Positions 12,067-50,711 of a stretch of DNA of 64,000 nucleotides are shown here, piece by piece. Under the pieces are notes generated by a model, which did not search any database, was not told where the DNA came from, and saw nothing but the letters and a program-made list of their open reading frames with translations. Source of the DNA: Fibrobacter sp. Its GTDB lineage: Bacteria; Fibrobacterota; Fibrobacteria; Fibrobacterales; Fibrobacteraceae. Location: assembly GCF_017642335.1 (NCBI RefSeq), contig NZ_JAGCPF010000038.1; one strand, given 5' to 3'. Position numbers and translations under genes: made by a program. Each line of letters starts with the position of its first letter. Position 1 is the stretch's first letter.

Positions 12067-12713
12067 TTATTGACGCAACAATGATGTCAAATCAAGCATT
12101 TCTTTTGCGCAATCAACAGTCTGTTCCAAAGTTATCCCTCTGGCAAATGGATTCTTGGCAACAAATCTTCTCCAAAAATCAATTTGTGCCGAATCAGCTT
12201 TGATCTCTTCTAGAATCTGCGGATATTCTTCCAATATTTTGAAAGTGTTTCGCTTGTGAGATGTCGCCTCAAGAGCTTTCTTTAGCGTTTCAAAATTTAT
12301 CTCTTTTTTCTTCAACGTGTAAAGCGTATATACATCGTAGAAGTCTCTAGTTCGGGTATTTGCCATGCCCCTTGAAATAATCGTATCCAGTTTTTCTGCG
12401 AAAACATTCTCTAAAGGATACGCTAAAATTGGTATTACTTTATTATCAAAAACGCATTTATACTTGTATTTCGTTTCCTTGGGAATTATGGTGTCGCGTC
12501 GATGTCCATTGTAGAACGACTTCCAATTCCAAGAATGGAAGCAATCAGGAACCCGCCTTTAATAACAAAATGGTCGCGAAAACGCGAAACGGCAATCCTA
12601 TCCAGCAAACGTTCAAGACAATACATTTGCAAGGTCGCCTGAGGCGTAATTCCATACTTTGTGGATAAATCCTTCAACAGCGCCTTTAGTTGCATTTCGT
12701 TATTAGTTATCAC
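12067..12713 (-). pseudogene. AbiEii-family nucleotidyltransferase toxin, internally deleted and frameshifted
   Basis: N-terminal piece (LERLLDRI...FVIKGG...RSTMDID) stops at 12486; C-terminal piece (IPILAYPLENVFAEKL...RTRDFYD) lies in another frame; middle of the protein is missing. Confidence 0.8.
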
Positions 12714-13312
12714 AGCAATACCTCTAAATACGCCCGGAGTTTTTTCTCTACATGGAATATTTTTGCCAGTTGCATCAGTTTCGGAATATTTTTTTCTTTG
12801 CGATTGACATATGTTTTAATCGCATAGATTATGGTCTGCATATCGGCTGCAACTTTGGCTGTCATGATTTCGCATAAGGTCCTTTCGACAGAATAAGCGC
12901 GGACGCTATTTCCCAAAGGCGTTTTGACATCTACAATTTCAAGAGGATAAAGGTTTTTCGAAGAATGCTTTACCACAATTCCATTTTTCGCTAGAGAGGG
13001 CGAATGGTAAAAACCCTTAAATGTCATTGTCCACGTAAACGGAGCGCGTTCTATCAGAGAATGTAAGAATAAGGCCGTTTCGCACGAGAAGATGCCTGTC
13101 GGGCAGCGATGCTGCAAATTCAGGAGTTCGTCTTCCTGGGCTGTTGCCAACTGATACACACCTCGCTCTACCCTTATGATTTGTCCAGCGTCGGCAAGCT
13201 GTTTCAAAAACATTCTGTGAATACCTGCAAAAGAGGCCTCTTTCGCAGTAATTCTACCACCCCTTTCCGAGAGAAGGTTTATCAGTATTTTTTCTTTGCC
13301 ATTGACGTTCAT
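12710..13312 (-). CDS. abiEi: AbiEi-family type IV antitoxin / transcriptional regulator
   Basis: N-terminal wHTH (RVERGVY), FSCETALFLH, YSVERTLCEI; adjacent to abiEii; start at ATG 13312, 7 nt after TATATT. Confidence 0.8.
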   Translation of the reverse strand: MNVNGKEKILINLLSERGGRITAKEASFAGIHRMFLKQLADAGQIIRVERGVYQLATAQEDELLNLQHRCPTGIFSCETALFLHSLIERAPFTWTMTFKGFYHSPSLAKNGIVVKHSSKNLYPLEIVDVKTPLGNSVRAYSVERTLCEIMTAKVAADMQTIIYAIKTYVNRKEKNIPKLMQLAKIFHVEKKLRAYLEVLL

Positions 13313-13459
13313 ACTAGTAAATATATAAGATATTAGTATAAATGTCAATACAAGCCGTTCTGCCATTGTCAATAGCTTTTTTTAGGCAAAACAATTCAAA
13401 AAATCATAGATATAAATCGCTTTTTTTTACTATTTCTATTTTGGATAAAGACTTTATCG

Positions 13460-16968: not shown

Positions 16969-17814
16969 ATGAGCGAATGGACCACAGTCATCAAGCCGAA
17001 ATCGAGCCTGCTCTCGGTCGACTTCGGCGAAATCTGGCAGTACCGCGATCTGTACCGCATGTTCGTGAAGCGCGATATCGTCACGTGGTACAAACAAACT
17101 ATTCTCGGACCGCTGTGGTTCTTTATACAGCCCATCATGACGACCATCATGTTCATGGTCGTGTTCGGCGGCATCGCGAAAATCTCGACGGACGGTTTGC
17201 CGCAGCCGCTGTTCTACCTGGCGGGAATCTGCCTCTGGACCTATTTTTCGGAATGCCTGAACCAGACGAGCAAAACGTTCATCGAAAACGCGAACATGTT
17301 CGGCAAGGTGTATTTCCCGCGGCTCGTTGTGCCGCTTGCGACCGTCACGAGCAACCTCGTGCGGCTCAGCATCCAGATGGGGCTGTTTTTCCTGGTGTTC
17401 GCGTATTACCTGATATTCACCGACGCCCCGGTACACCCTAATTTGTACGCGCTGCTCACGCCGGTACTCGTACTGCTCATCGCCGCGCTCGCGCTCGGTT
17501 TCGGCGTGCTGTTCAGCAGCCTCACCACCAAGTACCGCGACCTGACATTCCTGCTGAGCTTCATCGTTCAACTCTGGATGTACGCGACCCCGGTGATTTA
17601 CCCGCTCAGCACCATCGAGGACCCGCGCCTCAAAATGCTCATGCAGGCTAACCCGCTCACCAGCATCATGGAAACGTTCAAGTTCGGGATGCTCGGGGTA
17701 GGGGAGTTCAGCTGGGCCGCCCTAGGCTACACCGCCGGCTTCGCCGCGTTCATCCTCGCGCTCGGCATCGTCGTGTTCAACAAGATCCAGCGCACCTTCA
17801 TGGATACGGTGTAG
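16969..17814 (+). CDS. wzm: Polysaccharide ABC transporter permease
   Basis: RDIVTWYKQTILGPLW, YRDL, ATPVIYP, NPLTSIME; ABC-2 membrane topology. Confidence 0.9.
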   Translation: MSEWTTVIKPKSSLLSVDFGEIWQYRDLYRMFVKRDIVTWYKQTILGPLWFFIQPIMTTIMFMVVFGGIAKISTDGLPQPLFYLAGICLWTYFSECLNQTSKTFIENANMFGKVYFPRLVVPLATVTSNLVRLSIQMGLFFLVFAYYLIFTDAPVHPNLYALLTPVLVLLIAALALGFGVLFSSLTTKYRDLTFLLSFIVQLWMYATPVIYPLSTIEDPRLKMLMQANPLTSIMETFKFGMLGVGEFSWAALGYTAGFAAFILALGIVVFNKIQRTFMDTV

Positions 17815-19028: not shown

Positions 19029-20318
19029 TCATTTCTCAAGCAGTTCTCGCGAAATTTCTTCACGGTGGTTCTTGCGAACGCCACAGTCTTTCGCGATTTC
19101 GTCCCAGTTTGCAACGGCATTCTCGACCTGGTCAATGATTCCCGCATACTTGCGGATTCCGATGCGTTCCGCTACCGCCTTGAGATCGTCGCGCGTGATA
19201 TTTTCCTGTTTCATGTTCACGGACATCTGGTGGCGATTTACCCAGCGGCTCCTTGGGTTGTTGGCATAGCACAGGTCGTATGCGGGTGCCAATTTCCAGG
19301 TTCCGTATTCGTCCATCAGGAAAGATATGTTCTTGGTGTGGTCGTCATTGTTCTTTGCCAAAACGTTGAAAACCATGTAGCGGAACACTTCCTCGTCGGC
19401 CTTGGCGTCGAGCCCGAGTTTGCGCATAGCGGCAAAAGCGTCCTCGTAGGAATGGCGAGCGTCACGGTCCAGGTGAGTCAAGGCGGCAAGCGTCTGCATG
19501 TGCAGTTTGGAACCTTCGTCCGTGCGGTCGAAACGTCTGGTCATAAAGTGGCAACCGCTGCGATCTTCTAGAATGCGGCTTTCGCTCATGCGGATTCCGG
19601 CCCGTAGCGCCATCTTGTAGTACGCGTATTCGACGTTCCCTATCCCGCGAGGAATTTCGGTGATGCTGTCGTGTTCGCGGTAGCTTACGCCGTCGAACTT
19701 GAGCAGCCAATAGCCGAACCCTTTTGGCGCAGGAACCTGGCCACTGCGCACTTCGCCCGTAGATTCGTTGTACGCAATAATCGCCTTTGGCTTTGCTCCT
19801 CCGGCAGAAGTGCCGACTCGCAGGATGTCGTACAAAGTCTTGTCCTGCTGCACAAGTTTTTCCCTAAATTTTTTGCGGTCCCGAAAAACGCTCTCAGCCA
19901 GCTTTACGAGATCATCCACAAGTATTTCCGTGGATTCGTCAAGCCCTGGTGTCGGCAAGCTGGGCTCAAACTCCAAGGCGCCCATAGAACGCTTGCCGAC
20001 ATAGCACAGGCGTTCCAGCGGTGTCACCGTCTCTAGCGGACGGCCCATGGTCTGGAACCATTCCGAAATAATCTGGTCGCCGAACCTATCCGGGAGCGAA
20101 TCCGCAATGAGCCCGGGGAGCCCGCGAAAGCAGTCATTCCTGTTCTCGGCAAAAGAGAAAACGCCCTTCGTCACGGGCATCTTTATAGGGGATACCGGCA
20201 ACGGATTGCGGACAAAGGCTGGCTCGTATTCGAAATAGGCGATACCCCGCGACGCATCCCACGAAAGCGCACCGACAGGCGACCCCCACAAGTGCACGTT
20301 TACGACAAGTTCGCTCAT
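19029..20318 (-). CDS. hipA: HipA family kinase toxin
   Basis: HipA N-terminal coupling region, GTSAGGAKPK, NNDDHTKNISF, LAPAYD. Confidence 0.9.
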   Translation of the reverse strand: MSELVVNVHLWGSPVGALSWDASRGIAYFEYEPAFVRNPLPVSPIKMPVTKGVFSFAENRNDCFRGLPGLIADSLPDRFGDQIISEWFQTMGRPLETVTPLERLCYVGKRSMGALEFEPSLPTPGLDESTEILVDDLVKLAESVFRDRKKFREKLVQQDKTLYDILRVGTSAGGAKPKAIIAYNESTGEVRSGQVPAPKGFGYWLLKFDGVSYREHDSITEIPRGIGNVEYAYYKMALRAGIRMSESRILEDRSGCHFMTRRFDRTDEGSKLHMQTLAALTHLDRDARHSYEDAFAAMRKLGLDAKADEEVFRYMVFNVLAKNNDDHTKNISFLMDEYGTWKLAPAYDLCYANNPRSRWVNRHQMSVNMKQENITRDDLKAVAERIGIRKYAGIIDQVENAVANWDEIAKDCGVRKNHREEISRELLEK

Positions 20319-20620
20319 TTGGCCTTGCTCCGTTTGATACGCTGGATCTTGCCGTCCTGCAACCTGCGCAACAGAAGTGGGCTCACGGGAGGTTCCGGCA
20401 GGAACTGCTCTAGATTTTCGAGCAAGCCAAGAGAACGCAGCACGCTCAATAGGATTTGTACAGACACGGCACCCCCGCGTTCCATCTTGGCAATTGTGCC
20501 GACGCCAACACCGGCGGACTCCGCCAGTTCAGATTGCATCAAGCCCTTCCGCAGACGGTATTCCTTGAGTCTTGCTCCCATTTCCTTCAAAATAGAGGGT
20601 GTCGTCATTTCGTTCCACAT
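20315..20620 (-). CDS. HipB-like XRE/HTH antitoxin
   Basis: RLKEYRLRKGLMQSELAESAGVGVGTIAKMERG; overlaps the hipA start. Confidence 0.8.
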   Translation of the reverse strand: MWNEMTTPSILKEMGARLKEYRLRKGLMQSELAESAGVGVGTIAKMERGGAVSVQILLSVLRSLGLLENLEQFLPEPPVSPLLLRRLQDGKIQRIKRSKAK

Positions 20621-20785
20621 GATTATAAATATACACAATAATTATCACAAAAAGAATGATTATCGTAGAAAATGGCGATAAAAATGCTTTTTGTGATAGT
20701 TATAAACGTAATAAAAAGAGCCGGTGATGTATATTCACCGGCTCTGTTTGGTATGATAAATTTTCGGAGATGCTAATTGAATCAA

Positions 20786-25672: not shown

Positions 25673-25781
25673 TTTTCAAAAATATCAGCAAGCGATATTG
25701 CCTAAGACTTGTGAGTTCTGGGGCGCTCAGCCACGACCAGAACGAGCCGGATTCCTAAAATAGGGATAAAGGGACATCCCA

Positions 25782-27791: not shown

Positions 27792-27876
27792 ATTATAAGG
27801 GACCTGCCGGAGCAGCGAAAAATGCGCGTTTTTCGCGCAATTTTTTTGAATCGGCTTCTCGGCTGTCCCTTATAAT
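27792..27876. mobile_element. 85-bp MITE-like element with terminal inverted repeats
   Basis: attataagggac / gtcccttataat perfect 12-bp TIR extending imperfectly to ~23 bp; inner gcgaaaaa/tttttcgc palindrome; right 69 bp repeated at 30682-30750. Confidence 0.5.
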
Positions 27877-27906
27877 CTATATTGCTTACATACAATGACC
27901 GCCATT
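27877..27906 (+). pseudogene. wzt stub A: promoter box plus first ~4 codons (ATGACCGCCATT)
   Basis: Upstream 69 bp match stub B at 67/69; MTAI matches the wzt start; sequence then runs into REP-like DNA. Confidence 0.55.
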
Positions 27907-30563: not shown

Positions 30564-30757
30564 AATTGCTCCTTTTTTAATGTTTTATTGAGAAAAAGAG
30601 GTAGTTTCGGCAAAAAGTTTCTATTTACATAATAGTAGGGTTTTAACTGCCTTCTATGGCTGGCTGGGCTGCTAGAATATCAAAAATGCGCGTTTTTCGC
30701 ACATTTTTTTTGAATCGGCTTCTCGGCTGTCCCTTATAATCTATATTGCTCAATAGA

Positions 30758-31251
30758 ATGACAACCGCCATCGAGTTCGAGAACATCAGCAAGCAGTACC
30801 GTCTGGGGCTAGTGAGCACCGGGACGCTTAGCCACGACCTGAACAGGTTCTGGCAGACCAAGGTGCTGCGCCGTGAGGACCCCTACCTCAAGGTGGGCGA
30901 AGTCAACGACCGCGCGCACAAGGGCGACAGCGAATACGTGTGGGCCCTGAAAGACATCAATTTTAAAGTGGAACAGGGCGACGTCGTGGGAATCATCGGC
31001 AGGAACGGCGCCGGCAAGAGCACGCTCCTCAAGCTGCTGAGCCGCGTGACCGCCCCCACCACCGGCACCATCCGCGCACGGGGCCGCATCGCGAGCCTCC
31101 TCGAAGTGGGCACCGGATTCCACCCGGAGATGACCGGCCGCGAGAACATCTACATGAACGGCGCCATCATGGGCATGAGCCGCGCCGAGATTACCCGCAA
31201 GCTCGACGAGATCGTGGACTTCAGTGGCTGCGAACGCTACCTGGACACCCC
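30758..31251 (+). pseudogene. wzt stub B: 5' ~165 codons of the ABC ATPase, truncated at YLDTP just before the signature motif
   Basis: Near-identical to 40460-40950; ORF continues into unrelated AT-rich DNA and stops at 31276. Confidence 0.95.
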
Positions 31252-31308
31252 AAAGAAAAAATATTGTTATTATTAAACTATCTCACTAAAACGTTTTTTA
31301 GGTTAAAA

Positions 31309-36199: not shown

Positions 36200-36395
36200 A
36201 TGTCGTCTGCTATTGAGTTCGAGAACATCAGCAAGCAGTACCGCCTGGGGCTAGTGAGCACCGGGACGCTCAGCCACGACCTGAACAGGTTCTGGCAGAC
36301 CAAGGTGCTGCGCCGCGAGGACCCCTACCTCAAGGTGGGCGAAGTGATGCCGTTGAGATTATCGATCGCGAACGCTACCTAGACACCCCAGTGAA
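36200..36395 (+). pseudogene. wzt stub C: codons 1-49 fused to a remnant of the EIVD..CERYLDTPVK segment
   Basis: 36200-36345 matches the wzt 5' end; 36354-36395 (gagattatcgatc gcgaacgctacctagacaccccagtgaa) matches about 40906-40956. Confidence 0.9.
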
Positions 36396-37559: not shown

Positions 37560-37806
37560 ATGACCGCGATCGAGTTTGAAAACATCAGCAAGCAGTACCG
37601 CCTGGGGCTAGTGAGCACCGGGACGCTCAGCCACGACCTGAACAGGTTCTGGCAGACCAAGGTACTGCGCCGCGAGGACACCTACCTCAAGGTGGGCGAG
37701 GTGAACGACCGCGCGCACAAGGGCGACAGCGAATACGTGTGGGCCCTGAAGGACATCAACTTCATGGTGGAACAGGGCGACGTCGTGGGCTTCATCGGCA
37801 GAACAT
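37560..37806 (+). pseudogene. wzt stub D: 5' ~82 codons, truncated within Walker A
   Basis: Matches 40460-40705 with a few missense changes; ORF reads on to TGA 37847, overlapping the next ATG. Confidence 0.95.
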
Positions 37807-39317: not shown

Positions 39318-40430
39318 ATGATTTGCTCAGACCTAAAAAAAGGCTTACACAGTTGGCTAGACAAACTTAACCAACCGTTTCTCTTAAACCAAGGAGAAAC
39401 AGAAATCCTGACTTTGCGACAAGATGGCGACAGAGACGAGGTATTCGATGTTCTAAAGGGTATCGCCATATTCCTCGTGATTATTGGGCATTGCACATCA
39501 GGACCATTGAAAGTATTTGCTCATACATTTCACATACCCTTATTCTTTTTTATTGCCGGATATTTTCTTAAAATTCGCCCTATCCGGCAAGAAATTCAAC
39601 TTAGCACAAAAAGACTCATCATTCCATATTTTTTTGTAGCTTTTTTCTCTTCTCTCATAGCGATTCTCCAAGATCTTTCACACTACACCTGGGCGGACGG
39701 AACTTATTCTCAAGAAATAATCATTAGACTGTTACTTGGCTTTAGAACGGACTTCGCGCCCAGTTGGATGAATGGAAACATCGGCATTCTTTGGTTCATT
39801 CTCGCCATGTTTTGGGCTCGGTGTATCGCAGTATTTTTAATTGGAAAAATTCACTCAATAAAGAAACTTTGCGTTATTTTTTTCATTCTAGCAATTCTAG
39901 GGATTGTTTTAGGAAAATTCGTTTTTGTTCCTTACTGCATTCCACATGGTCTCACCGCTTCGGCCCTAGTTTATGTTGGTTTTCTCATAAGAAAATTTAG
40001 GATACTAAACTCAGAATATATTAACAAAATCCTTCCTTTTCTGCTTATACTTTGGCTATGCAGTTTGAACCATGGCGGCTTGGGAATGGCTAGCGGGAAT
40101 TATCCTTTGGGCTTTATTTTTAGTTCATTAGGAGCTCTAGGAGCCTTTTTAACATTGTATATTGTCGTAAAAACAATCTACAGAAAAGATTCCACATTTT
40201 GGAGATTTATCTATTTCGGAGGACGTTTTAGTCTAATTATCTACTGTGTCCACGCTATCGAATTTGACAATTTCAACTGGAAAGCCTTCGCTCTGTTGCA
40301 TCATGTCCCCTTAAATCATTTTGACCTGTTCCAATTGGCAGCACATTTTACCATTACCCTTGTATTCACATCTATTATTTTAAAGATTAAGCCAATTAAA
40401 GAACATATTTTCCAAATAAGAAATGTTTAA
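39318..40430 (+). CDS. Acyltransferase family 3 (paralog of 48578-49576)
   Basis: FDVLKGIAIFLVIIGHC, PLFFFIAG, GILWFI. Confidence 0.85.
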   Translation: MICSDLKKGLHSWLDKLNQPFLLNQGETEILTLRQDGDRDEVFDVLKGIAIFLVIIGHCTSGPLKVFAHTFHIPLFFFIAGYFLKIRPIRQEIQLSTKRLIIPYFFVAFFSSLIAILQDLSHYTWADGTYSQEIIIRLLLGFRTDFAPSWMNGNIGILWFILAMFWARCIAVFLIGKIHSIKKLCVIFFILAILGIVLGKFVFVPYCIPHGLTASALVYVGFLIRKFRILNSEYINKILPFLLILWLCSLNHGGLGMASGNYPLGFIFSSLGALGAFLTLYIVVKTIYRKDSTFWRFIYFGGRFSLIIYCVHAIEFDNFNWKAFALLHHVPLNHFDLFQLAAHFTITLVFTSIILKIKPIKEHIFQIRNV

Positions 40431-40459
40431 AAATCTGCAAAAAATTATTTTTTTACAAA

Positions 40460-41725
40460 ATGATAGCCATCGAGTTCGAGAACATCAGCAAGCAGTACCG
40501 ACTGGGGCTAGTGAGCACCGGGACGCTCAGCCACGACCTGAACAGGTTCTGGCAGACTAAGGTGCTGCGCCGCGAGGACCCCTACCTCAAGGTGGGCGAA
40601 GTCAACGACCGCGCGCACAAGGGCGCAAGCGAGTACGTGTGGGCCCTCAAGGACATCAACTTCAAGGTGGAACAGGGCGACGTCGTGGGAATCATCGGGC
40701 GTAACGGCGCCGGCAAGAGCACCCTCCTCAAGCTGCTGAGCCGCGTGACCGCTCCCACCACCGGCACCATCCGCGCACGGGGCCGCATCGCGAGCCTCCT
40801 CGAAGTGGGCACCGGGTTCCACCCGGAGATGACCGGGCGCGAGAACATCTACATGAACGGCGCCATCATGGGCATGAGCCGCGCGGAGATTACCCGCAAG
40901 CTCGATGAAATCGTGGACTTCAGCGGCTGCGAACGCTACCTGGACACCCCCGTGAAACGCTACAGCAGCGGCATGACCGTACGCCTCGGATTCGCCATCG
41001 CAGCACACTTGGAACCCGAAATCCTCGTGGTGGACGAAGTGCTGGCCGTGGGCGACGCCGAATTCCAAAAGAAGGCCATCGGCAAGATGCAGGACGTAAG
41101 CCGCGGCGAAGGCAGAACCGTGCTGTTCGTGAGCCATAATATGGGCGCGGTGAAGAATTTGTGTAAGCGCGGAATTGTGCTGAATCAGGGACAAGTGACG
41201 TTTGATGGAGCGGCAGACAATGCCGTAAATTTTTATACAGGAAGTTATCGCTTATCAGAAGAAGACGAACTAATCAATCGGGTAACAAAAACGGCAAAAG
41301 GCATTTCAATAAAGCATTTCTCTTTTAACGGCTCAACATCTAGTCAAACAACTATCACAAATGGACAAAAATCCATTGAGGTCTGCATTGAGGGTTATAC
41401 TAGCAGCCCTCTTTCTAAAGTTGACATCAGATTGACTATAAAAAATTCTTTGGGAACACCACTAGCAACTCTTGCAGAAGGACACTATAAAAATAGCACT
41501 CAGGATTTTGATATCGGAGATTTCTCGATAAAGAAAGAATTCATTTTGCCCAAATATCTTTCACAAGGGCTTTGCATTGTCGACATCTATTTGCACAAGC
41601 CAAACGTCATGTACTATATGGAAGCCCCCAATTGTGCAACAATAGACATTAACGGAAATAGCGAACGATTCGGACAGGCCCTTTTATTAAACAGGGATGG
41701 CTTTTTCGGATTTGAAACGAAATAA
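40460..41725 (+). CDS. wzt: Polysaccharide ABC transporter ATP-binding protein with Wzt_C domain (intact copy)
   Basis: GRNGAGKST, YSSGM, VVDEVLAVGD, VSHN, plus a C-terminal extension. Confidence 0.95.
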   Translation: MIAIEFENISKQYRLGLVSTGTLSHDLNRFWQTKVLRREDPYLKVGEVNDRAHKGASEYVWALKDINFKVEQGDVVGIIGRNGAGKSTLLKLLSRVTAPTTGTIRARGRIASLLEVGTGFHPEMTGRENIYMNGAIMGMSRAEITRKLDEIVDFSGCERYLDTPVKRYSSGMTVRLGFAIAAHLEPEILVVDEVLAVGDAEFQKKAIGKMQDVSRGEGRTVLFVSHNMGAVKNLCKRGIVLNQGQVTFDGAADNAVNFYTGSYRLSEEDELINRVTKTAKGISIKHFSFNGSTSSQTTITNGQKSIEVCIEGYTSSPLSKVDIRLTIKNSLGTPLATLAEGHYKNSTQDFDIGDFSIKKEFILPKYLSQGLCIVDIYLHKPNVMYYMEAPNCATIDINGNSERFGQALLLNRDGFFGFETK

Positions 41726-41737
41726 ATAGAGTGTCTT

Positions 41738-42862
41738 ATGCCCCTATTATTTGATTTAACGGCCTCCCAACCGAACAATACAATTAAAAGACATGGTGGC
41801 GGGAAGTACTGTGAAATGCTTTTTGATGGCTTATGCAAAAGAAAAGCGTCTTTTCAGGCTTTCTATGACTCAAGCAAATATCTTAACCCTCAAGTATGTG
41901 AAAGTCTGAAACAATACGATATTAAACTTCATGATATAAAAGACAAACCGCTTCAATTAATTGTTAATCAAAACGACATTGATGCAATATATTCTGCTTT
42001 ACCAGAAGCGTTACAGCCGTGGCCAACTTGCAAAATTCTAGGAACCATTCACGGATTGCGGAGTCTTGAACTTGAATATGATTTCTATGGGCACTGGTTG
42101 TTAGATTCTGGAGTCGTTGGGTTAAATACGTTTTTAGGTTATTTCTTCAACAAAAAGAATAAAAAGCAAACATTCAAACATTATCAAAAATTACTCCGGA
42201 CATCAAATTTTTCTTTCGTAACCGATTCTAATCATTCAAAAAAAGTAATTCAAGCGATTTGTCCAGAATTAGACATTCCCGTCTTCTACCCTCCATCAAC
42301 ATCAATCTGTCAGTCAAAAAAAACGTCAAATGAAAAATACATTTTAATAGTTTCTGCAGATAGATTTGAAAAAAACTGCACTAGAGCCATCATTGCAATT
42401 GATGAACTTCTTTCAAAAAAACGAATCCCTTCAGATGTACTTATCAAAATAACGGGAATAACACGCAATATTTCTAGATACAACATAAAAAACATATCTA
42501 ATTTCAGATTCCTAGGATATGTTGACGAAAGGGAGCTGGATTCACTCTATGCGAATGCGTATGCCTTTATATATCCATCTTTAAATGAGGGCTTTGGCTA
42601 CCCGCCGCTGGAAGCCATGAAATATAATGTTCCCGTAATAGCATCAAACGCGGCGTCTATTCCAGAAGTCTGTGGAAATGCCGCTTTATATTTCAGTCCA
42701 ACATCCATAAGCGAATTAGAAGAGAAAATTATTGGATTACAAAACAAAAACATCTATTCTGATTTACAAAAAAAAGGGGCGGCGAGGTTTCAGGAAATAG
42801 AGGCAAGGCAAAAAGAAGATTTAGATAAACTTGTTGATTGGATTATACGCAACGCTACGTAA
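41738..42862 (+). CDS. Glycosyltransferase family 4
   Basis: YPSLNEGFGYPPLEAM, SIPEVCG. Confidence 0.85.
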   Translation: MPLLFDLTASQPNNTIKRHGGGKYCEMLFDGLCKRKASFQAFYDSSKYLNPQVCESLKQYDIKLHDIKDKPLQLIVNQNDIDAIYSALPEALQPWPTCKILGTIHGLRSLELEYDFYGHWLLDSGVVGLNTFLGYFFNKKNKKQTFKHYQKLLRTSNFSFVTDSNHSKKVIQAICPELDIPVFYPPSTSICQSKKTSNEKYILIVSADRFEKNCTRAIIAIDELLSKKRIPSDVLIKITGITRNISRYNIKNISNFRFLGYVDERELDSLYANAYAFIYPSLNEGFGYPPLEAMKYNVPVIASNAASIPEVCGNAALYFSPTSISELEEKIIGLQNKNIYSDLQKKGAARFQEIEARQKEDLDKLVDWIIRNAT

Positions 42863-42868
42863 AAGCAT

Positions 42869-43669
42869 ATGATTTTAGATAAACTTCGTAATAATTCTAT
42901 CTGCATAAAGATATATTCATACCTAAAATGGCATGAACGATTCGCACTAATAAAAAATTTTGGATTTAGATACAAATGCCCTTTTTGCGGATATCATGCA
43001 CGAAAAATGAACCCCATTGGCTGTGATTTTAAAGTCATTTACGAAAAAGAAATTGTAGGATGTGGACGTCGTTTCGCGGGATGTATAAAATGTGGCTCGA
43101 CAGACAAAGAACGCTTAGTATTTACATATATGCAAAGCATTAATTTTTTTGAAAATCCAAACAAAAGCATTCTGCATATGGCTCCGGAACTTAATTTGAG
43201 TAAACAATTCCTCAGACACAAATTTAAAGAATACATTTGCGGTGATTATTTCGCCCCTGGATATGAAAATGTTTATCCCAGCTACGTAAAAAACATAAAT
43301 ATTTTGAACATTCCTTACAGTAATGAATATTTTGATGTTGTCATATGCAACCATGTGTTAGAGCACATCGAAAATGACCTCAAAGGAATGTCTGAAATAT
43401 ATCGAGTTTTGCGAAAAGGAGGATTTGCGATTCTGCAAGTGCCCATTTCTTATATAACAGATAAAACTTATGAAGATCCAAGCATCTCTGACCCTGCAGA
43501 ACGCGAAAAAGTGTTTGGGCAATGCGATCATGTGAGAATTTACGGACTAGACTATTTTGATAGGTTGAAAAAAGTCGGCTTTGAAGTTGAAATTGTTTCT
43601 GATTTGGCAACAAGATATTCCAAGTATGGATTAAATAGCAAAGAAAAAATTTTCATCTGCCATAAGTGA
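42869..43669 (+). CDS. Class I SAM-dependent methyltransferase
   Basis: CPFCG...CIKCGS, LHMAPE, CNHVLEHI, RVLRKGG. Confidence 0.85.
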   Translation: MILDKLRNNSICIKIYSYLKWHERFALIKNFGFRYKCPFCGYHARKMNPIGCDFKVIYEKEIVGCGRRFAGCIKCGSTDKERLVFTYMQSINFFENPNKSILHMAPELNLSKQFLRHKFKEYICGDYFAPGYENVYPSYVKNINILNIPYSNEYFDVVICNHVLEHIENDLKGMSEIYRVLRKGGFAILQVPISYITDKTYEDPSISDPAEREKVFGQCDHVRIYGLDYFDRLKKVGFEVEIVSDLATRYSKYGLNSKEKIFICHK

Positions 43670-43805
43670 ATGAAAAAGCCGCATTAAATATATCAAAGTT
43701 GGATAATTGTTAATTTATTTACATTACAAAACGAATATGTGAATTGTGGTTACCCATTGCGGGAAAGCTTACATATCCATAAATTTTTAAACAAGTTGTT
43801 TTTTT

Positions 43806-44789
43806 TTATTTTGCGAATATTTTAAAAGTACAGCAATACAACTTAGCCAAATAATTGACAATGCCTAGTATTATCTTATTTTTTTTCTTCGATGATAAAA
43901 TCAGATCACGCAAAAGACCATACGAAGGATTTTTAAATAATTTATCTTCGTTATTAAGTTTCACCATAGCAGCAGAAAAGCATTTATTGGGATTTTGTAT
44001 AATTCGTTGAAAAGTTTCAAGTTGTTTATTCGAAATTTTAACGGACTGCCAAAAACTTTTTTTCTTCAATTCGAAAAATTCTTCCGATTCTGCAGTCTGT
44101 AACCCTGAGCTAAAGTAATGAATGAGCTTAGCTCCCAACAAATAACGGATGGAAAAATCAATTTGAACATTATAAAAGTCTGGGAGAGGCTTCGCAACAC
44201 CAACTTTGTACGAATTAACATAATTTAAAGACTGCTGATCCGTAAAAACACCTTTGTCGCAAGAATATTTCCACCAGCGATTCCAATCATCCATAAAACT
44301 ATGAGCAACGGGAGAGTCCTTAACAAATAGCACGCCCCCATTAATGAAGAAATCTGTATTTATTTTAAAATTTAATTTATTCGCAAATGTTTGATGGATT
44401 TCTTTCCATTTGAAGTTTTCAAACTTCACATTTCCATCAGGAACGCCCATAATATCGCCATCAAAATCTTTAAAATCAATAGCCCCAACCCATAAGGTGT
44501 CAACATCAACATACAGCAAATCACCAGCAACATATTTATGCATTGATGTTTTCAAAGAACGAGAACGAATCATTGCATTAACAGAATCATCAAATGGCAC
44601 AACATTACATTCATCAATATAGTCTAGGATACGCTCCCGATTTCCCTTTATAGAATCATTGGTTTTTTCGTCCATCAGCAACGCAATCGAAATGCCTGGC
44701 ATATGGTACTTTGCAGACATTACGGACAATAAAGCCTGTTCATAATAACAATCCGTTTCTTGGCTAACAAGTACATAAAGTAATTTCAT
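43806..44789 (-). CDS. GT8-like glycosyltransferase
   Basis: YVDVD DxD, INGGV, DQQSLN, IHYF. Confidence 0.7.
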   Translation of the reverse strand: MKLLYVLVSQETDCYYEQALLSVMSAKYHMPGISIALLMDEKTNDSIKGNRERILDYIDECNVVPFDDSVNAMIRSRSLKTSMHKYVAGDLLYVDVDTLWVGAIDFKDFDGDIMGVPDGNVKFENFKWKEIHQTFANKLNFKINTDFFINGGVLFVKDSPVAHSFMDDWNRWWKYSCDKGVFTDQQSLNYVNSYKVGVAKPLPDFYNVQIDFSIRYLLGAKLIHYFSSGLQTAESEEFFELKKKSFWQSVKISNKQLETFQRIIQNPNKCFSAAMVKLNNEDKLFKNPSYGLLRDLILSSKKKNKIILGIVNYLAKLYCCTFKIFAK

Positions 44790-44932
44790 ATGCTATCTCT
44801 ATCGTGCAAAAGCTCCGCCTTTTATAATCTTTTGACAATCTATAAATTTTTTTCTATTTAAAATATACATCAATCCGGCCCTATTAGTTTAACCATTCTT
44901 AATTCATTAACATATTTTTTAGATTTAACAAT

Positions 44933-45781
44933 ATGAGTAAATACATCGCAGCAGTCATATTATACAACCCCAATATTAATCAACTACAAAAATGTCTAGC
45001 GCCTATTGCAAACAATGTTGATTTACTCTATTTCATAGATAACGCTTCTAAAAATGAATTTGAGATTAACAATTGCGTAAAAAATTTTTCCAACGCAAAA
45101 ATTGTTAGGAATTGCCAAAATCAGGGATTGTCAAAACCTTTTAACCAGCTTTTAAAATATTCGAGAGAACACAATTTTTCACATTTGCTACTTCTTGATC
45201 AAGATTCTGAGCCTTCATCTAACTTTATTGAGGAGCTGAAAAAATATGCTGACAAAAACTTTGTTTGCTACACTCCTCTACTAATTCATAAATCACCCGA
45301 TTATCAAAAAACATATGGATGTACACCACATGGTGAAACTGAAAACATAAAAGAATCAATCAATTCAGGAACTCTCATCAATATAAATAAGCTTCCCGCA
45401 GGCATTTGTTTTGACGAAAATTTATTCATAGACTGGATTGACATTGATTTTTTCTATCAACTTGAACTAGCTTCAAAGAAAACCCTTCGAATCAACAATG
45501 CAAAACTTTTAATTAACATAGGCAATCAAAAAGTCCATCATGTTTTTAAATACACTTGGTTTTCCTCCGGTTATTCAGCATTTCGTCTAAAGAAACAAGC
45601 TCAAGACACTGTTTATTTCTTTCTAAAATATCGCAAGCACAATTTTATTAAAGGTCACATCACATTTCTCTTGTGGCGTTGGTTGATGATGCTGTTTTTA
45701 GAAAATAAACGCATCCGAAAAAGTTTGGCGATCATTTCAGGATTAATCCAAGGTCTTCGCCTATACAAATATTTATATTAA
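44933..45781 (+). CDS. GT2 rhamnosyltransferase-like
   Basis: ILYNP, IDNAS, LLLDQDS, INSG, FIDWID. Confidence 0.8.
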   Translation: MSKYIAAVILYNPNINQLQKCLAPIANNVDLLYFIDNASKNEFEINNCVKNFSNAKIVRNCQNQGLSKPFNQLLKYSREHNFSHLLLLDQDSEPSSNFIEELKKYADKNFVCYTPLLIHKSPDYQKTYGCTPHGETENIKESINSGTLININKLPAGICFDENLFIDWIDIDFFYQLELASKKTLRINNAKLLINIGNQKVHHVFKYTWFSSGYSAFRLKKQAQDTVYFFLKYRKHNFIKGHITFLLWRWLMMLFLENKRIRKSLAIISGLIQGLRLYKYLY

Positions 45782-45786
45782 TAAGC

Positions 45787-46890
45787 ATGGACAAGCCTCT
45801 CATCATAGCGTTCTATCTCCCTCAATACCACCCCATTCCCGAGAACGATGAATGGTGGGGCAAAGGCTTTACTGAATGGACAAACGTTGGCAAGGCAAAG
45901 CCTCTTTTCAGAGGCCATTATCAGCCTAAGGTCCCTGCCGATTTAGGATATTATGATTTAAGGATTCCGGAAATACGCGAAAAACAAGTTGAACTTGCTC
46001 GTGAATCTGGTGTAAATGGCTTTTGTTATTGGCACTACTGGTTTGGCAATGGAAAAGAATTACTTGAACGGCCCTTTAAAGACGTCGTAGAATCTGGCAA
46101 ACCGAATTTCCCATTCTGTCTAGGGTGGGCTAACGAAAACTGGCAGGCAAAATTATGGAACGCAGATTGCAGTTCCTCGGTCAAAAAGGACCTCATTATT
46201 CAAGAATACCCTGGTACTGAGGATATAAGAAATCATTTTTACAGCCAACTAAAGGCCTTTAAAGATTCCCGCTACATAAGAATCAACAACCGCCCGCTGT
46301 TCTTGATATATTCACCGCTGAAACATCCCCAGTTACAGGATTTTTTTCGTATATGGAATGTTCTTGTCAAAGAAAATAATGTTGCTGAATCATTCTACTT
46401 CGTAGGTTTGGCAAAAGATGATCAAGAAATGGAAAACATAAAAAAAATGGGTTTTGATGCCGTTACAAGTGGTCTGTTAGACAGAATACCATCTGTATAT
46501 ATGAAACGGCCTCTTCTTTATAGAATGATCAAATACATCCTACGTACAAAATTCAATAGACCCATCGTTATCTCATACTCCAAAGCAGCACAACTGTTTA
46601 CTCATCCCGATTTCGACCGCAAAGAATATATAATCCCAACACTCATTCCGAATTGGGATCATTCTCCAAGAAGTGGCGGTAATGCAGTTATTCTCCATAA
46701 TGCTACTCCAGAAGCGTTTCAGAAGCATTGCGAATCCGTGCTGAGCGTTGTAAAAGAAAAAGAAAATAAAATCATCTTCTTAAAATCATGGAACGAATGG
46801 GGTGAAGGAAATTATATGGAACCCGATTTAAAATATGGTAAGGGATATATCCAAGCTCTTGCTAAAGCAATAAAAAAGGTGTTTCCGTGA
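45787..46890 (+). CDS. WbsX-family / GH99-like-domain protein
   Basis: AFYLPQYHPIPENDEWWGKGFTEWTNV, FCYWHYWF, WANENW, SWNEWGEG. Confidence 0.85.
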   Translation: MDKPLIIAFYLPQYHPIPENDEWWGKGFTEWTNVGKAKPLFRGHYQPKVPADLGYYDLRIPEIREKQVELARESGVNGFCYWHYWFGNGKELLERPFKDVVESGKPNFPFCLGWANENWQAKLWNADCSSSVKKDLIIQEYPGTEDIRNHFYSQLKAFKDSRYIRINNRPLFLIYSPLKHPQLQDFFRIWNVLVKENNVAESFYFVGLAKDDQEMENIKKMGFDAVTSGLLDRIPSVYMKRPLLYRMIKYILRTKFNRPIVISYSKAAQLFTHPDFDRKEYIIPTLIPNWDHSPRSGGNAVILHNATPEAFQKHCESVLSVVKEKENKIIFLKSWNEWGEGNYMEPDLKYGKGYIQALAKAIKKVFP

Positions 46891-47774
46891 AAAATTTATA
46901 CATAACCATTTTCACGCCCACCTACAATCGCAGACAATTGATAGAAAGACTCTATCAATCACTTTTGTCACAAACTCAAAAAAATTTTGAGTGGTTGGTG
47001 GTTGATGATGGCAGTACCGATGACACTGAAAACTTTTTCGAGCCACTCTTATCCGAACAGAAACCCTTTCCTATTCGCTATATAAAGCAAAAAAATGGTG
47101 GCAAACACAGAGCAATAAATAACGGCGTAAAAAAGGCATCTGGAGAACTATTTTTCATTGTCGATTCCGACGACTATCTAACTGAAAACGCAATTGAGAA
47201 AATAAATCAATGGATGACAACCCTAGATGGTTCGCATAAGTGGGCAGGAATTGCAGGATTAAGAGGTCAAACAAAGAATAGAGTTCTTGGTCAGTACAAT
47301 TCCTCATCTAAATATATTGATGCAAAAAATAGCGAAAGACGCAAGTACAACTTATTAGGTGATAAAGCTGAAGTCTATTTCACGGACGTTTTAAAGAAAT
47401 ATCCATTCCCAGAAATCTCTGGTGAAAATTTCATCTCTGAAGAAATTGTATGGAATGCTATAGCGCGAGATGGTTATTGTTTAAGATGGTTTAACGAGAT
47501 TATCTATATCTGTGATTACCTTGATGGAGGATTAACAAAAGATAATTCCAAAGATCAAAACAATCCTCAGGGACGACTTCTTTGGGCAAAGGGCCAGCTA
47601 GAGACATTCCCTAATTCATGGAGAGATCGATTTCTCGCCATTGGCATATATCGTCATTCGGTTCGCAATGCGGAATCTTTACGTCAAACGGCAAATAAGC
47701 TAGACGTTTCTTTGTTTCTCGTGATTTTTGCATCCATGCTTTTATCATTATACAGCCATATTTTTTCCAATTAG
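46887..47774 (+). CDS. GT2 glycosyltransferase
   Basis: FTPTYNR, VDDGSTD, NGGKHRA, IVDSDD. Confidence 0.9.
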   Translation: MKNLYITIFTPTYNRRQLIERLYQSLLSQTQKNFEWLVVDDGSTDDTENFFEPLLSEQKPFPIRYIKQKNGGKHRAINNGVKKASGELFFIVDSDDYLTENAIEKINQWMTTLDGSHKWAGIAGLRGQTKNRVLGQYNSSSKYIDAKNSERRKYNLLGDKAEVYFTDVLKKYPFPEISGENFISEEIVWNAIARDGYCLRWFNEIIYICDYLDGGLTKDNSKDQNNPQGRLLWAKGQLETFPNSWRDRFLAIGIYRHSVRNAESLRQTANKLDVSLFLVIFASMLLSLYSHIFSN

Positions 47775-47782
47775 ATGTATAT

Positions 47783-48559
47783 ATGATTCCTAATGTTATA
47801 CATTATTGCTGGTTTAGTGAAGATCCTTATCCGCCTAAAATTGCGGAATGCATTGCTAGTTGGGAGAAATACATGCCGGGCTATCAAATCAAAAGATGGT
47901 CAGCAAAGAATTTTGACATTGATTCTGTAAAATTGGTTCGAGAGGCGTATGACGCAAAAAAATGGGCTTTTGCAACCGATTACATACGTTTGTACGCATT
48001 ATGCAATGAAGGTGGAATCTATTTAGATTCCGATGTTCTCTTGCATCAAAATGTTGAATCTTTTTTGAAATCTGATTATGTTTCCGCAATCGAATTTCAT
48101 CCTATCGACAAAAAAGCATACAAGCAAAGCATTACCCCAAATTTTAAGCGAAATGAATCCGTAAGTTGTGTAGACGGAGTTGGCCTACAAGCTGCATTTA
48201 TGGCAAGTATCCCACATCATCCGTTTGTTGAAAAATGTCTAGCACAATACGAAAATATATCACTCAATCAAATTTTAGAAAGAAGCCTTTTAGCCCCAAC
48301 AATGCAAGCTCTCGCGGCAGAACCGTTCGGTTTTTTGTATAAAAATGAAGAGCAGCATTTGAGCCATTCAATAACATTATACCCAACATCCATTATCGGC
48401 CAAAATGCATATGAAACAAAAGGTAGGATTGCGACGCATCTTTGTGCCGGAAGTTGGGAAAATAGCCCTTTAAAACATAAAATCATTGATTTGTTGAATA
48501 ACCGCTGGCATGTTCTGCCTTATTTATATAAAATTTTGCCTATCAGCAAAAAGAAATAA
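47783..48559 (+). CDS. GT32-like DxD glycosyltransferase (capsular polysaccharide synthesis)
   Basis: IPNVIHYCWF, ATDYIRLYAL, GGIYLDSD. Confidence 0.85.
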   Translation: MIPNVIHYCWFSEDPYPPKIAECIASWEKYMPGYQIKRWSAKNFDIDSVKLVREAYDAKKWAFATDYIRLYALCNEGGIYLDSDVLLHQNVESFLKSDYVSAIEFHPIDKKAYKQSITPNFKRNESVSCVDGVGLQAAFMASIPHHPFVEKCLAQYENISLNQILERSLLAPTMQALAAEPFGFLYKNEEQHLSHSITLYPTSIIGQNAYETKGRIATHLCAGSWENSPLKHKIIDLLNNRWHVLPYLYKILPISKKK

Positions 48560-48577
48560 GAAGTCAACGTATTCAAT

Positions 48578-49576
48578 CTACATCGTCTTTATTTGAAAAA
48601 CTTTTTCACGCAATGGTTTTATTTTTAACAACACTAATGAAATCATCAACACAATGGCTGTTCGCGTTGGAATTTGAAAAAGAGTAAAATATTCGGAAGG
48701 AATCACAAAATATTTCGCTATAGCATTCCAGTTGCAGAAATTAATTTCTATCGCATGAACGCAATAAATGACCAAACAAACTCTTCCCAAAAAAGAAATC
48801 GCATTCAAGAATCGCCTGTCTTTGATGGAAAATCGCTTAACTGCTAAATAGAGGACAAAGAACACTCCATAAGCGCCTAATGTACCGGAAATACATTCTG
48901 TTGAAAACCAACAGCAGACCATGCTGAGTCCACCTTGACTACTGCAATAAATCCATAGAAATATTAGAATTGGAAGTATTCTCTTTATTTTGGTTGAATT
49001 GAGTAAATCAAAGAAATTCGTCATAAAACCAATATAAATAAACCCAGCAGCAAAGAACCCCTGTGGAATACAATAAGGGACAAAGACATATTTATGCAAT
49101 AGCATTCCTAAAAACACAAAGAAGGCAACTAAGGTACATTGTATTTTTGTCGATTTCACATTATTAATCAGTAACAAAACCAGGTTTCTCCCCCAGAATA
49201 ACGCTGGTAGAAACCAAAGAATCCCAATATCACCAATTAGCCATTCAGGAGAGTGATCTCCTCTAACACAGAGCAGATATTTCGTCATCAATTGTAAAAA
49301 TTCTGAGATGCAGAAAGGGCCTCTTGCAAAACCCATAAATAATTCTACAATACAAATGCAGCAAACCACAAAAAGGTATGGAATAAACAGTTTTTTTGCA
49401 CTTATCTGAATTTCTTCAATTAGGGACCTTTTTTTTAGAAAAAATCCAGTAATGAAAAAGAACAAAGGCATATGGAACGAATCTATAAATGGATGTAAGT
49501 GTCCAATATCGCAGTGACCGATAATAACAAGGATAATTGCCAATCCCTTTAAGATATCAAAGGTTTTATCTCGCAT
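48578..49576 (-). CDS. Acyltransferase family 3
   Basis: FDILKGLAIILVIIGHC, HMPLFFFITG, GILWFL. Confidence 0.85.
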   Translation of the reverse strand: MRDKTFDILKGLAIILVIIGHCDIGHLHPFIDSFHMPLFFFITGFFLKKRSLIEEIQISAKKLFIPYLFVVCCICIVELFMGFARGPFCISEFLQLMTKYLLCVRGDHSPEWLIGDIGILWFLPALFWGRNLVLLLINNVKSTKIQCTLVAFFVFLGMLLHKYVFVPYCIPQGFFAAGFIYIGFMTNFFDLLNSTKIKRILPILIFLWIYCSSQGGLSMVCCWFSTECISGTLGAYGVFFVLYLAVKRFSIKDRRFLNAISFLGRVCLVIYCVHAIEINFCNWNAIAKYFVIPSEYFTLFQIPTRTAIVLMISLVLLKIKPLREKVFQIKTM

Positions 49577-50711
49577 ATAGATTCTCTAATTGACTATAGC
49601 ATATTCTAATATCAAATCGTTTACATTTTATTTGTGGATGTTTGCGGTCAATTGCGGCGCCCAAAAACTCTATTCTTTTACCCCAAGATTTAACTTCATC
49701 AATTGGTAATGGGAATACATTGTCTGTTATCGCTGTCTCCTTTGGCACTGCTGCGCTCACTACGCATGGCAATCCATTATATTGAGCTTCCACCAATGTC
49801 ATAGGGAACGCTTCTCGCTTCGATGGCAGCAAAAGTACATCCATAGCGCAGTAGAAACAGACAATATCTCTTTGAAGTCCGGCGAAAATAACCTTATCAT
49901 CAATGTGTCTTTGTTTTACCAAATTTTGAATTTCTGCTTGTAACGGTCCATTCCCAACGAGCAATAGTTTGCATTTGTCATGCATTCGGGAATATTCAGA
50001 GAATAGGTCAACAATGAATTTATGATTTTTTTCTGGATAGAATCTCCCCACATGTCCCATGACAAAGTCATCCTCTGCGATTCCATACTTTGCGCGGATT
50101 TCTCGACGTGCCGCTTCGTTAAATTTGAACCGTTCCGGGTCGATTGCGTTGGGGAGAATCGTCACCTTGCCTTTCTTTACAGCGCTTCGTCCCCAGCCGT
50201 TGATGGCGGCAGCCTCGCCACAGGCAAGCCAATGGGTAGCAAACATTTTGCAGGGAATGCGGAGTATGGAGCAGAGGAGACTCTTTACAAGGTGGTTCGG
50301 CGGGCTCACCAACCTTGTTTTAGGTCCTTTGACGGGCTCTTGAGCAGTATATGCTTGATGGTGGTGGGCAATTCTTTTTTTGATTCCGGCGAGCATAGCC
50401 AAAAAGCACACGTAGCTGTTCATGAACCAGTCCAAGTGACTATGGACTACATCGTAGCGGCCTTTTCTAAAGATTCGGAACATCGTCCACAGGTGCTTTA
50501 GCGGGTGGTGGACCTTATCGGGAATCTGGATGCAGTTGATTCCGGCCTCGTTGAAACGCTCCAATATTTGCGGATTCGGTTCGTACTGGTACAGCAAATC
50601 AAAATGGATATCGCGCATACGGGAACAGTAGTTCAGAACCACCTGTTCCGAACCGCCGCCTACAATCCCGTGCAGCACCTGACAAACGCGAATTTGTTTT
50701 TTTTGAATCAT
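49566..50711 (-). CDS. Glycosyltransferase family 4 (EpsF-like) with an in-frame REP-derived insert
   Basis: GGSEQVV, HVGRFYPEKNH, EAFPMTLVEAQ. Confidence 0.85.
   Translation of the reverse strand: MIQKKQIRVCQVLHGIVGGGSEQVVLNYCSRMRDIHFDLLYQYEPNPQILERFNEAGINCIQIPDKVHHPLKHLWTMFRIFRKGRYDVVHSHLDWFMNSYVCFLAMLAGIKKRIAHHHQAYTAQEPVKGPKTRLVSPPNHLVKSLLCSILRIPCKMFATHWLACGEAAAINGWGRSAVKKGKVTILPNAIDPERFKFNEAARREIRAKYGIAEDDFVMGHVGRFYPEKNHKFIVDLFSEYSRMHDKCKLLLVGNGPLQAEIQNLVKQRHIDDKVIFAGLQRDIVCFYCAMDVLLLPSKREAFPMTLVEAQYNGLPCVVSAAVPKETAITDNVFPLPIDEVKSWGKRIEFLGAAIDRKHPQIKCKRFDIRICYSQLENLYAR

Follow-up and report, generated by a model that had tools for sequence, protein, structure and literature searches.

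The wzt gene of a Fibrobacter glycan exporter as a probable mosaic of a core ATPase half and an exchangeable specificity module

From the evidence assembled here, the gene wzt in a 64,000-nucleotide stretch of Fibrobacter DNA (contig NZ_JAGCPF010000038.1; the whole stretch is referred to as the window) is understood as a genetic mosaic, a reading that we hold with good confidence. A conserved nucleotide-binding domain (NBD) belonging to the core of the locus would thus be joined to an AT-rich, exchangeable specificity module from a cassette pool shared among Fibrobacter. The window is part of a draft genome of 3.77 Mb in 73 contigs with 51.9% GC. The open reading frame (ORF) of wzt (40460-41725, plus strand, 421 amino acids) has an ABC_tran domain (PF00005) at residues 63-194 (E 3e-22), and the motifs GRNGAGKST, YSSGM and VSHNM are read in its translation, that is, Walker A, signature and H-loop are all present. 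The product would be an ATPase serving a Wzm/Wzt glycan exporter, one of those in which the end of the polysaccharide is checked. Three parts are distinguished, all on the plus strand: the conserved GC-rich NBD half from Walker A to the H-loop VSHNM (40460-41155), a transition zone with the last NBD strands and the hinge-helix region (41156-41242), and an AT-rich C-terminal tail (41243-41725), predicted to be a carbohydrate-binding domain (CBD) and designated type 'a'.

The GC content at third codon positions (GC3) sets the two ends of the gene apart. In 20-codon windows it stays at 0.70-1.00 until codon ~225, reaches 0.5 by codon 231 and 0.2-0.35 by codon 246-256; the drop spans about 20 codons straight after the H-loop. 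The maximum-likelihood change point lies at codon 232, window nucleotide 41156, with GC3 of 0.87 to the left and 0.36-0.37 to the right. Its log-likelihood gain is 59.5; in 2000 codon shuffles of wzt the gain averaged 2.3 and did not exceed 10.0. For the 2726 stop-to-stop frames in the same genome that have 300 codons or more, the 99th percentile of the gain is 35, and wzt is in the top ~10. Long ORFs have a median GC3 of 0.61 genome-wide (5-95% range 0.41-0.79), making both halves of wzt outliers. The front half is like wzm and the conserved upstream glycan genes (0.76-0.85), and the tail is like the downstream block at 41738-49576 (0.30-0.38). An earlier reading of the window from its sequence alone (the sequence-only reading) had placed the end of the GC-rich codons at VSHN (codons 224-227, about 41129-41140) and the completed shift to AT at about 41230, and had described the AT-rich composition as running on through the glycosyltransferase cluster. 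These landmarks are correct, and the change is abrupt, not gradual, as that reading held. The step is likewise present in all of the 35 further Fibrobacter loci which, with the window, make up the set of 36 compared here (one genome per species); it lies at codon 211-263, with GC3 of 0.69-0.88 to its left and 0.25-0.43 to its right. Since the species are related and all comparisons were made against a single reference genome, the counts given in this study are descriptive and do not amount to independent tests.

Comparison across the genus indicates separate ancestries for the two parts. When wzt was searched at the nucleotide level in all 101 species genomes of Fibrobacter, its first 685-779 nucleotides were matched at 84-96% identity in more than 30 of them, and in none of the 101 did a match extend into the tail: the matches end at nucleotide 685-779, save for hits ending earlier. 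Across the 36 loci, the NBDs are at least 93% identical in amino acid sequence (median 97%); the tails, whose median identity is 22%, sort into 18 or more types when delimited at a 45% identity cut-off. On the maximum-likelihood tree of NBD DNA the tail type changes 30 times, compared with 29.1 +/- 1.1 times for shuffled labels, and the tail types are therefore scattered at random on it. With the NBD data, the approximately unbiased (AU) test rejects a clade of three loci with the window's tail type (p = 0.0003). The closest NBD pairs, 98% identical at the nucleotide level, carry tails that are 20% identical, and the tail type of the window recurs, at 74-91% identity, with NBDs placed elsewhere on the NBD tree. 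At third codon positions, the identities of the NBD and of wzm to their counterparts in other species are correlated (rho 0.79), with the higher value for the NBD in 25 of 25 comparisons (76% vs 61%), an excess that fits a degree of recombinational homogenisation of the NBD. In its behaviour the NBD belongs with the core: the conserved part of wzt tracks the core, as represented by wzm, and the variable part does not. Both the mosaic of a conserved ATPase half with a variable specificity domain and the incongruence of NBD and tail ancestry, as put forward in the sequence-only reading, stand on this evidence.

Three properties change together at wzt nucleotides 690-780, placing the beginning of the exchangeable unit inside the structural NBD. 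Mean pairwise nucleotide identity falls from 0.83-0.91 to 0.5; pooled GC3 falls along with conservation, from about 0.6-0.9 to 0.3-0.4; and the extra similarity of loci with the same tail type, at most 0.8 points until nucleotide 690, rises to 12.6 points at 691-750 and 21.8 at 751-810. In the transition zone the protein is still semi-conserved and the codons are already AT-rich; Tyr259 is invariant among 74 homologues. As delineated from sequence, the exchangeable unit appears to comprise the last NBD strands, the hinge-helix region, the linker and the CBD. In the Aquifex transporter the hinge helix assists the CBD in holding the O antigen (PMC9445017); by analogy, it would make functional sense for hinge and CBD to be inherited together. 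As had been claimed, the variable part thus has its start within wzt, and its composition carries on into the glycan genes downstream. Crossovers within the NBD, also part of the earlier claim, were not demonstrated; the linkage to tail type begins only past nucleotide 690, just after the H-loop.

The tail is barely detected by sequence searches, and fold comparison was therefore needed. Pfam Wzt_C matches residues 280-400 weakly, at 17.5 bits and below the cut-off of 30.4, and a phmmer search of the C-domain against PDB sequences found nothing relevant. AlphaFold models of the full-length protein and of the C-domain alone have predicted local confidence (pLDDT) mostly above 85-90 and an all-beta tail, with a predicted template-modelling score (pTM) of 0.76 for the C-domain. 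When the C-domain model was used in Foldseek, the top 16 matches were all Wzt CBDs (8DKY, 6O14, 2R5O, 5HNO/5HNP; template-modelling score about 0.6, E 1e-6 to 5e-5), originating from A. aeolicus, E. coli O9a and an O12-specific transporter. A. aeolicus Wzt is the best structural match of the full-length model and aligns with it end to end (about 425 columns, E 4e-33). Going by the predicted fold, the tail is a Wzt carbohydrate-binding domain with a jelly-roll fold, in agreement with its initial assignment. Wzt CBDs bind the chain-terminating cap and license export (PMC9445017, PMC11231755, PMC7685785). By analogy, the CBD of the window may be a cap reader that gates export, consistent with the decorating enzyme found beside wzt in most tail types.

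Linkage of the tail to the DNA downstream of wzt is strong for the first gene. That gene is common (at least 60% identity) to 45% of locus pairs with the same tail type as against 0.3% of other pairs; the mean number of downstream genes shared is 0.93 vs 0.17. The supposition that the tail is swapped together with the glycan genes thus holds for the first downstream gene, but the rest of the glycosyltransferase block is weakly linked. The same division appears when tail type is compared with glycosyltransferase content: the first gene tracks, but the GT4 and methyltransferase pair of the window also stands beside other tails, recurring at 85% and 82% identity in a species (locus L032) whose tail is 21% identical. 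The gene directly after wzt encodes an FkbM methyltransferase or a polysaccharide pyruvyl transferase in three tail types each; a TupA-like ATP-grasp protein, a radical SAM protein, a GT2 or a GT4 in two types each; and LicD, a CDP-glycerol glycerophosphotransferase, a 620-amino-acid kinase-domain protein or a protein without Pfam family in one type each. Decorating enzymes other than glycosyltransferases account for 12 of the 18 types, or 13 if the protein without Pfam family is included. Pfam annotation was limited to these first-position genes, and the positional specificity of the families was assessed by homology. The families of decorating enzymes are almost confined to the first position; the GT2 and GT4 families are spread along the clusters. 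A decorating enzyme in this position fits, on gene order alone, a reader domain paired with its cap enzyme.

The first gene in the window is a GT4 glycosyltransferase (41738-42862, plus strand; PF00534, E 7e-22), and it is followed by a SAM-dependent methyltransferase (42869-43669, plus strand; Methyltransf_11, E 2e-11), which the sequence-only reading had recognised at that position and had associated with a methyl cap read by the tail. The GT4 stands directly after wzt in all four type-'a' lineages (72-91% amino acid or about 77% nucleotide identity), but the methyltransferase is intact in only two of them (the window and L043/L044), truncated in L045/L046 and absent from L155. In L045 (12442-12765) and L046 (3843-4144), two independent assemblies of a type-'a' Fibrobacter metagenome-assembled genome (MAG), only the 3' third of the gene is left, and the truncated copy is probably a pseudogene. 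Because the methyltransferase is not constant across the four lineages, a methyl cap is not supported for type 'a', and the proposal that the window tail reads one is weakened.

The proposed explanation considers wzt as a junction of two modes of inheritance. The first ~690 nucleotides, from Walker A to the H-loop, would be vertically inherited as part of the locus core together with the DegT, ATP-grasp, GFO, GT2 and wzm genes, with GC3 around 0.8. The DNA past the H-loop, coding for hinge, linker and CBD and including the immediately downstream gene or genes, would represent AT-rich interchangeable cassettes that move between Fibrobacter lineages. Its minimal co-inherited unit would be the CBD plus the first downstream gene, whose product may make the chain-end cap read by the CBD. 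The cap gene of the window would then be the GT4, possibly helped by the adjacent methyltransferase, and the distal glycosyltransferases would be shuffled separately from the CBD unit. Exchange is envisaged by homologous recombination, with the NBD-coding DNA as left arm and shared genes further right as right arm, both arms being deduced from the position of the boundary. A further suggestion, which we make tentatively and with more doubt than confidence, is that the near-invariant NBD is the constant site in Fibrobacter to which at least 18 modules of CBD plus cap enzyme, together forming a library, can be attached. The enzymes in the proposed library include FkbM methyltransferases, pyruvyl transferases, the glycerophosphotransferase, LicD, TupA-like ATP-grasp ligases, radical-SAM enzymes and the kinase protein. 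If the first-position enzymes do make caps, chain-end chemistries are predicted beyond the methyl, methyl-phosphate and Kdo (3-deoxy-D-manno-octulosonic acid) caps shown to gate ABC export, with a matching reader domain for each of the predicted caps.

A contrast between the two halves of wzt might also arise without exchange, in one gene evolving at two rates: the ATPase half would be purified and codon-biased, and the CBD would diversify in place with relaxed, AT-drifting codons. Tails of all types are indeed still homologous (blastp E 1e-25 to 1e-49 against the window tail), and the NBD is conserved across phyla, at 82-89% amino acid identity to Bacteroidales proteins. Yet tail type is random on the NBD tree and co-ancestry is rejected by the AU test, similar tails sit on NBDs of different clades and near-identical NBDs carry dissimilar tails, and AT-rich codons are found already in the conserved residues 232-260 and run unbroken into the downstream genes. 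We therefore consider in-place divergence very unlikely. The roles of the two parts could alternatively be reversed, the GC-rich NBD being the element that moves, as a 700-bp conserved segment repeatedly gene-converted into the AT-rich cassettes that flank it on both sides in the window. Directly 5' of wzt lies an acyltransferase-3 gene (39318-40430, plus strand; PF01757, E 1.8e-19) with GC3 of 0.36, syntenic with type-'a' wzt in L043/L044 at 79-84% nucleotide identity; with this gene upstream and the AT-rich tail downstream, the ATPase-coding 700 bp form a GC-rich islet between AT-rich stretches. The same flanking is seen in L043/L044, where the block of acyltransferase, wzt, GT4 and methyltransferase is collinear with the window. 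The higher third-position identity of the NBD than of wzm is, moreover, as expected if the NBD were homogenised between species. Against a moving NBD, its composition is that of the conserved upstream genes and its divergence follows that of wzm. In the emptiest loci wzm and wzt are 383 bp apart, and the AT-rich DNA upstream of wzt in the window is hence an insertion. A moving NBD is unlikely on balance, and some homogenisation by recombination fits the mosaic explanation as well.

That the junction arose in assembly, through a wrong join at the conserved NBD in a metagenome-derived contig, is scarcely credible. The genome is indeed a draft in many contigs and this one carries four or more repeats of the 5' part of wzt, but the repeats are 92-97% identical and not identical, the junction with its GC step is found also in 35 other genomes and in independent metagenome contigs, and L043 and L044, obtained from different samples, both show collinearity with window positions 39444-43670. 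Certain points do weigh against exchange of a CBD with its cap enzyme as the explanation. No individual crossover was mapped. A four-gamete test of the pairwise-homoplasy (PHI) kind in the NBD gave 56% incompatible site pairs with no distance effect at any neighbourhood size, so that very frequent recombination and recurrent synonymous mutation are indistinguishable within the NBD. Every comparison was made between species, with no recent intraspecific switching observed. Cap and cap enzyme are deduced from gene order only, the first gene of type 'a' is an ordinary GT4 of a family found also elsewhere in the clusters, and the methyltransferase is dispensable in two type-'a' lineages. The junction of NBD and type-'a' CBD is, furthermore, old: the CBD has 64-78% nucleotide identity to that of L045, a divergence comparable to that of the core flanks. 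Recent acquisition of the tail from a low-GC donor was rejected on this ground. With the junction present in lineages that have diverged like the core flanks, the GC step is no fresh scar; it has long been maintained where core DNA borders on a cassette pool.

The DNA between wzm and wzt has a history of its own. The gene wzm encodes the ABC-2 permease partner of Wzt (16969-17814, plus strand; PF01061 ABC2_membrane, E 7.6e-22; GC3 0.85), is 76-91% identical at the nucleotide level to wzm of other Fibrobacter species, and lies upstream of wzt at a distance of 22.6 kb. The intervening island (17815-40459) is built of cassettes for defence, toxin-antitoxin and acyltransferase functions, with 5' stubs of wzt interspersed. 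Its Pfam content includes HTH-M78, HipA, AAA_14-DUF4143 (twice), HEPN with AAA_21, AAA_15, AAA_21 with DUF4276, a TIR-like domain, RhuM, Acyl_transf_3 (twice) and HATPase-DUF4325. The gap measures 383 bp to 7 kb in other species, some of them with stubs, and that of the window is the largest. Several of the cassettes directly adjoin wzm or the intact wzt in other species. Cassette identity exceeds that of the core flanks for HipA (19038-20728), which is 98% identical to the copy in L155 compared with 92% for wzm there. The wzm-wzt gap therefore appears, from these sequence comparisons, to be an insertion hotspot across the genus. Site-specific integration was rejected as the process: no integrase or transposase family is found among the Pfam matches in 17.8-40.5 kb, and the stubs end at different places (wzt nucleotides ~84, ~13, 491, ~501 and 239).

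All five pieces of wzt in the gap are 5' fragments on the wzt strand. The oldest (25675-25743) corresponds to wzt nucleotides 16-84 at 75% identity. The next (27818-27900) is a copy of the wzt upstream region with about 13 nucleotides of wzt, 97% identical to 30682-30750. The stub at 30746-31251 (stub 1; wzt nucleotides 7-491, 95% identity) and that at 37560-37798 (nucleotides 1-239, 92% identity) have GC3 of 0.88 and 0.92, respectively, and another, at 36200-36395, has an internal deletion and retains nucleotides 7-143 plus 470-~501. Apart from the intact domain, no CBD fragment was found in the window by tblastn with about 150 CBD sequences, and there are no orphan tails downstream. In the proposed explanation, the stubs would be remnants of events that placed their left join within a wzt copy already resident, and could afterwards provide extra homology arms for cassette traffic in the gap. 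That they are by-products of serotype switching, as the sequence-only reading had suggested, is plausible. The restriction to 5' fragments and the lack of orphan tails agree with it, but switching is not separable here from the cassette traffic in the wzm-wzt gap. The stubs have, in addition, a possible relation to expression. The frame of the stub at 37560 enters foreign DNA, and its stop at 37847 overlaps the ATG at 37844 with which the next gene starts (ATGA); the ORF of stub 1 overlaps the next ORF at 31264-31276. By this arrangement the stubs may drive or couple expression of cargo genes.

The remainder of the locus frames these elements. Upstream, the conserved glycan genes DegT, ATP-grasp, GFO/IDH and GT2 form a run ending in wzm, and an AT-rich insertion inside these GC-rich genes (12067-13372) carries an AbiEi-like antitoxin gene and a 99-amino-acid ORF. 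Downstream of GT4 and methyltransferase, the rest of the AT-rich variable block (43806-49576) is a mosaic between species and encodes, in order, a protein without family match, GT2, WbsX, a further GT2, Gly_transf_sug and an acyltransferase (Acyl_transf_3). The right edge of the block is formed by another GT4 on the minus strand (49566-50711; PF00534, E 1.7e-27), of intermediate composition (GC3 0.48) and 73% identical in amino acid sequence to a gene of L033. The Fib_succ_major domain occurs in proteins encoded near the locus.

Some observations reach beyond the locus set. The NBD has unusually high amino acid identity across phyla, 82-89%, to Wzt of Bacteroidales MAGs (Muribaculaceae, Parabacteroides; P0018-P0120). 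This suggests an inter-phylum transfer of the exporter family among gut and rumen bacteria. The Parabacteroides homologue shows the same compositional step, GC3 of 0.56 to 0.26 at codon 227, and the Muribaculaceae homologue shows hardly any. Among the matches listed from a scan of metagenome contigs with the NBD, relatives were found at no more than 87% amino acid identity. A second wzt lineage exists in the genus, without significant GC3 step (L041 and L042 from G018 and G034; G078:C22:81365-82021; G095:C10:296579-297149), its NBD being 69-72% identical to that of the window in nucleotide and 83-85% in amino acid sequence. Both lineages co-occur in two species, which may have two glycan export loci. 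The strongest clean cases of a GC3 step within a gene in the genome of the window are two RHS-repeat proteins (L156:9156-11051 and L156:15701-17965, equal to G000 contig C26, about 92-101 kb), in which GC3 drops at codon ~393 (0.79 to 0.26) and at codon ~503 (0.82 to 0.30), respectively; these genes are probably polymorphic toxins with swapped C-terminal tips.

Regarding known systems, the Fibrobacter exporter resembles the Wzm/Wzt transporters of E. coli O8/O9a (equal to Klebsiella O5/O3) and Klebsiella O12 in its ABC ATPase with a C-terminal jelly-roll CBD (fold match 2R5O, 5HNO). In those systems a serotype-specific CBD reads the terminating cap, and the cluster also codes for the terminator enzyme (PMC9445017, PMC11231755, PMC7685785). 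Unlike their CBDs, the Fibrobacter tail, known here from sequence and models, is only about 14% identical and scores below the Wzt_C threshold, and Fibrobacter has at least 18 CBD types on one near-invariant NBD within one genus. The candidate cap enzymes, furthermore, include families outside the caps listed in PMC9445017 (methyl, methyl-phosphate, Kdo). The P. syringae locus for the common polysaccharide antigen (CPA) provides a parallel at the level of gene order: it is conserved up to wzm and follows the core phylogeny, and from wzt onward (the 'TET operon' wzt-wbdD-wbdA for transport, elongation and termination) it is variable and core-incongruent, attributed to recombination or horizontal transfer (PMC7820976). 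The Fibrobacter locus is similarly conserved to wzm, and variable and incongruent with the core further on. The break in P. syringae is described between wzm and wzt, whereas that in Fibrobacter lies inside wzt, after the H-loop and with a GC3 step of 0.5, and the two genes are separated by an insertion hotspot with wzt stubs. For the wzm-wzt gap, as distinct from the chimeric gene, an analogy exists with the minimal mobile elements of Neisseria, cassettes between conserved genes that move by homologous recombination with no recombinase of their own; the island shares with them the lack of any integrase or transposase family found. The GC-rich conserved 5' part, variable AT-rich 3' part and co-inherited downstream partner of wzt are features shared with Rhs and contact-dependent inhibition (CDI) polymorphic toxins. 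In Rhs/CDI systems, displaced 3' orphan tips accumulate downstream. The function of wzt is different, and the window has 5' stubs upstream only, with orphan CBD fragments absent.

Lastly, a serotype-specific Wzt C-domain and a cluster that varies from wzt onward are already established in Enterobacteria and Pseudomonas, and a literature search on wzt in Fibrobacter found nothing related. New features are the host genus, a boundary that falls within wzt, how many tail types one NBD carries, and the set of candidate cap enzymes. In a putatively cap-dependent glycan exporter, the finding locates the place where the invariable machinery gives way to the exchangeable specificity module. With the boundary right after the H-loop, the hinge region, which contributes to glycan holding in the Aquifex structure, travels with the CBD. 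The natural pairs of CBD and neighbouring enzyme on a common ATPase, at least 18 in number, could offer a guide to experiments on how exporters recognise finished polysaccharides, and on surface-glycan diversity, in phage or host interactions, of a major rumen fibre degrader.

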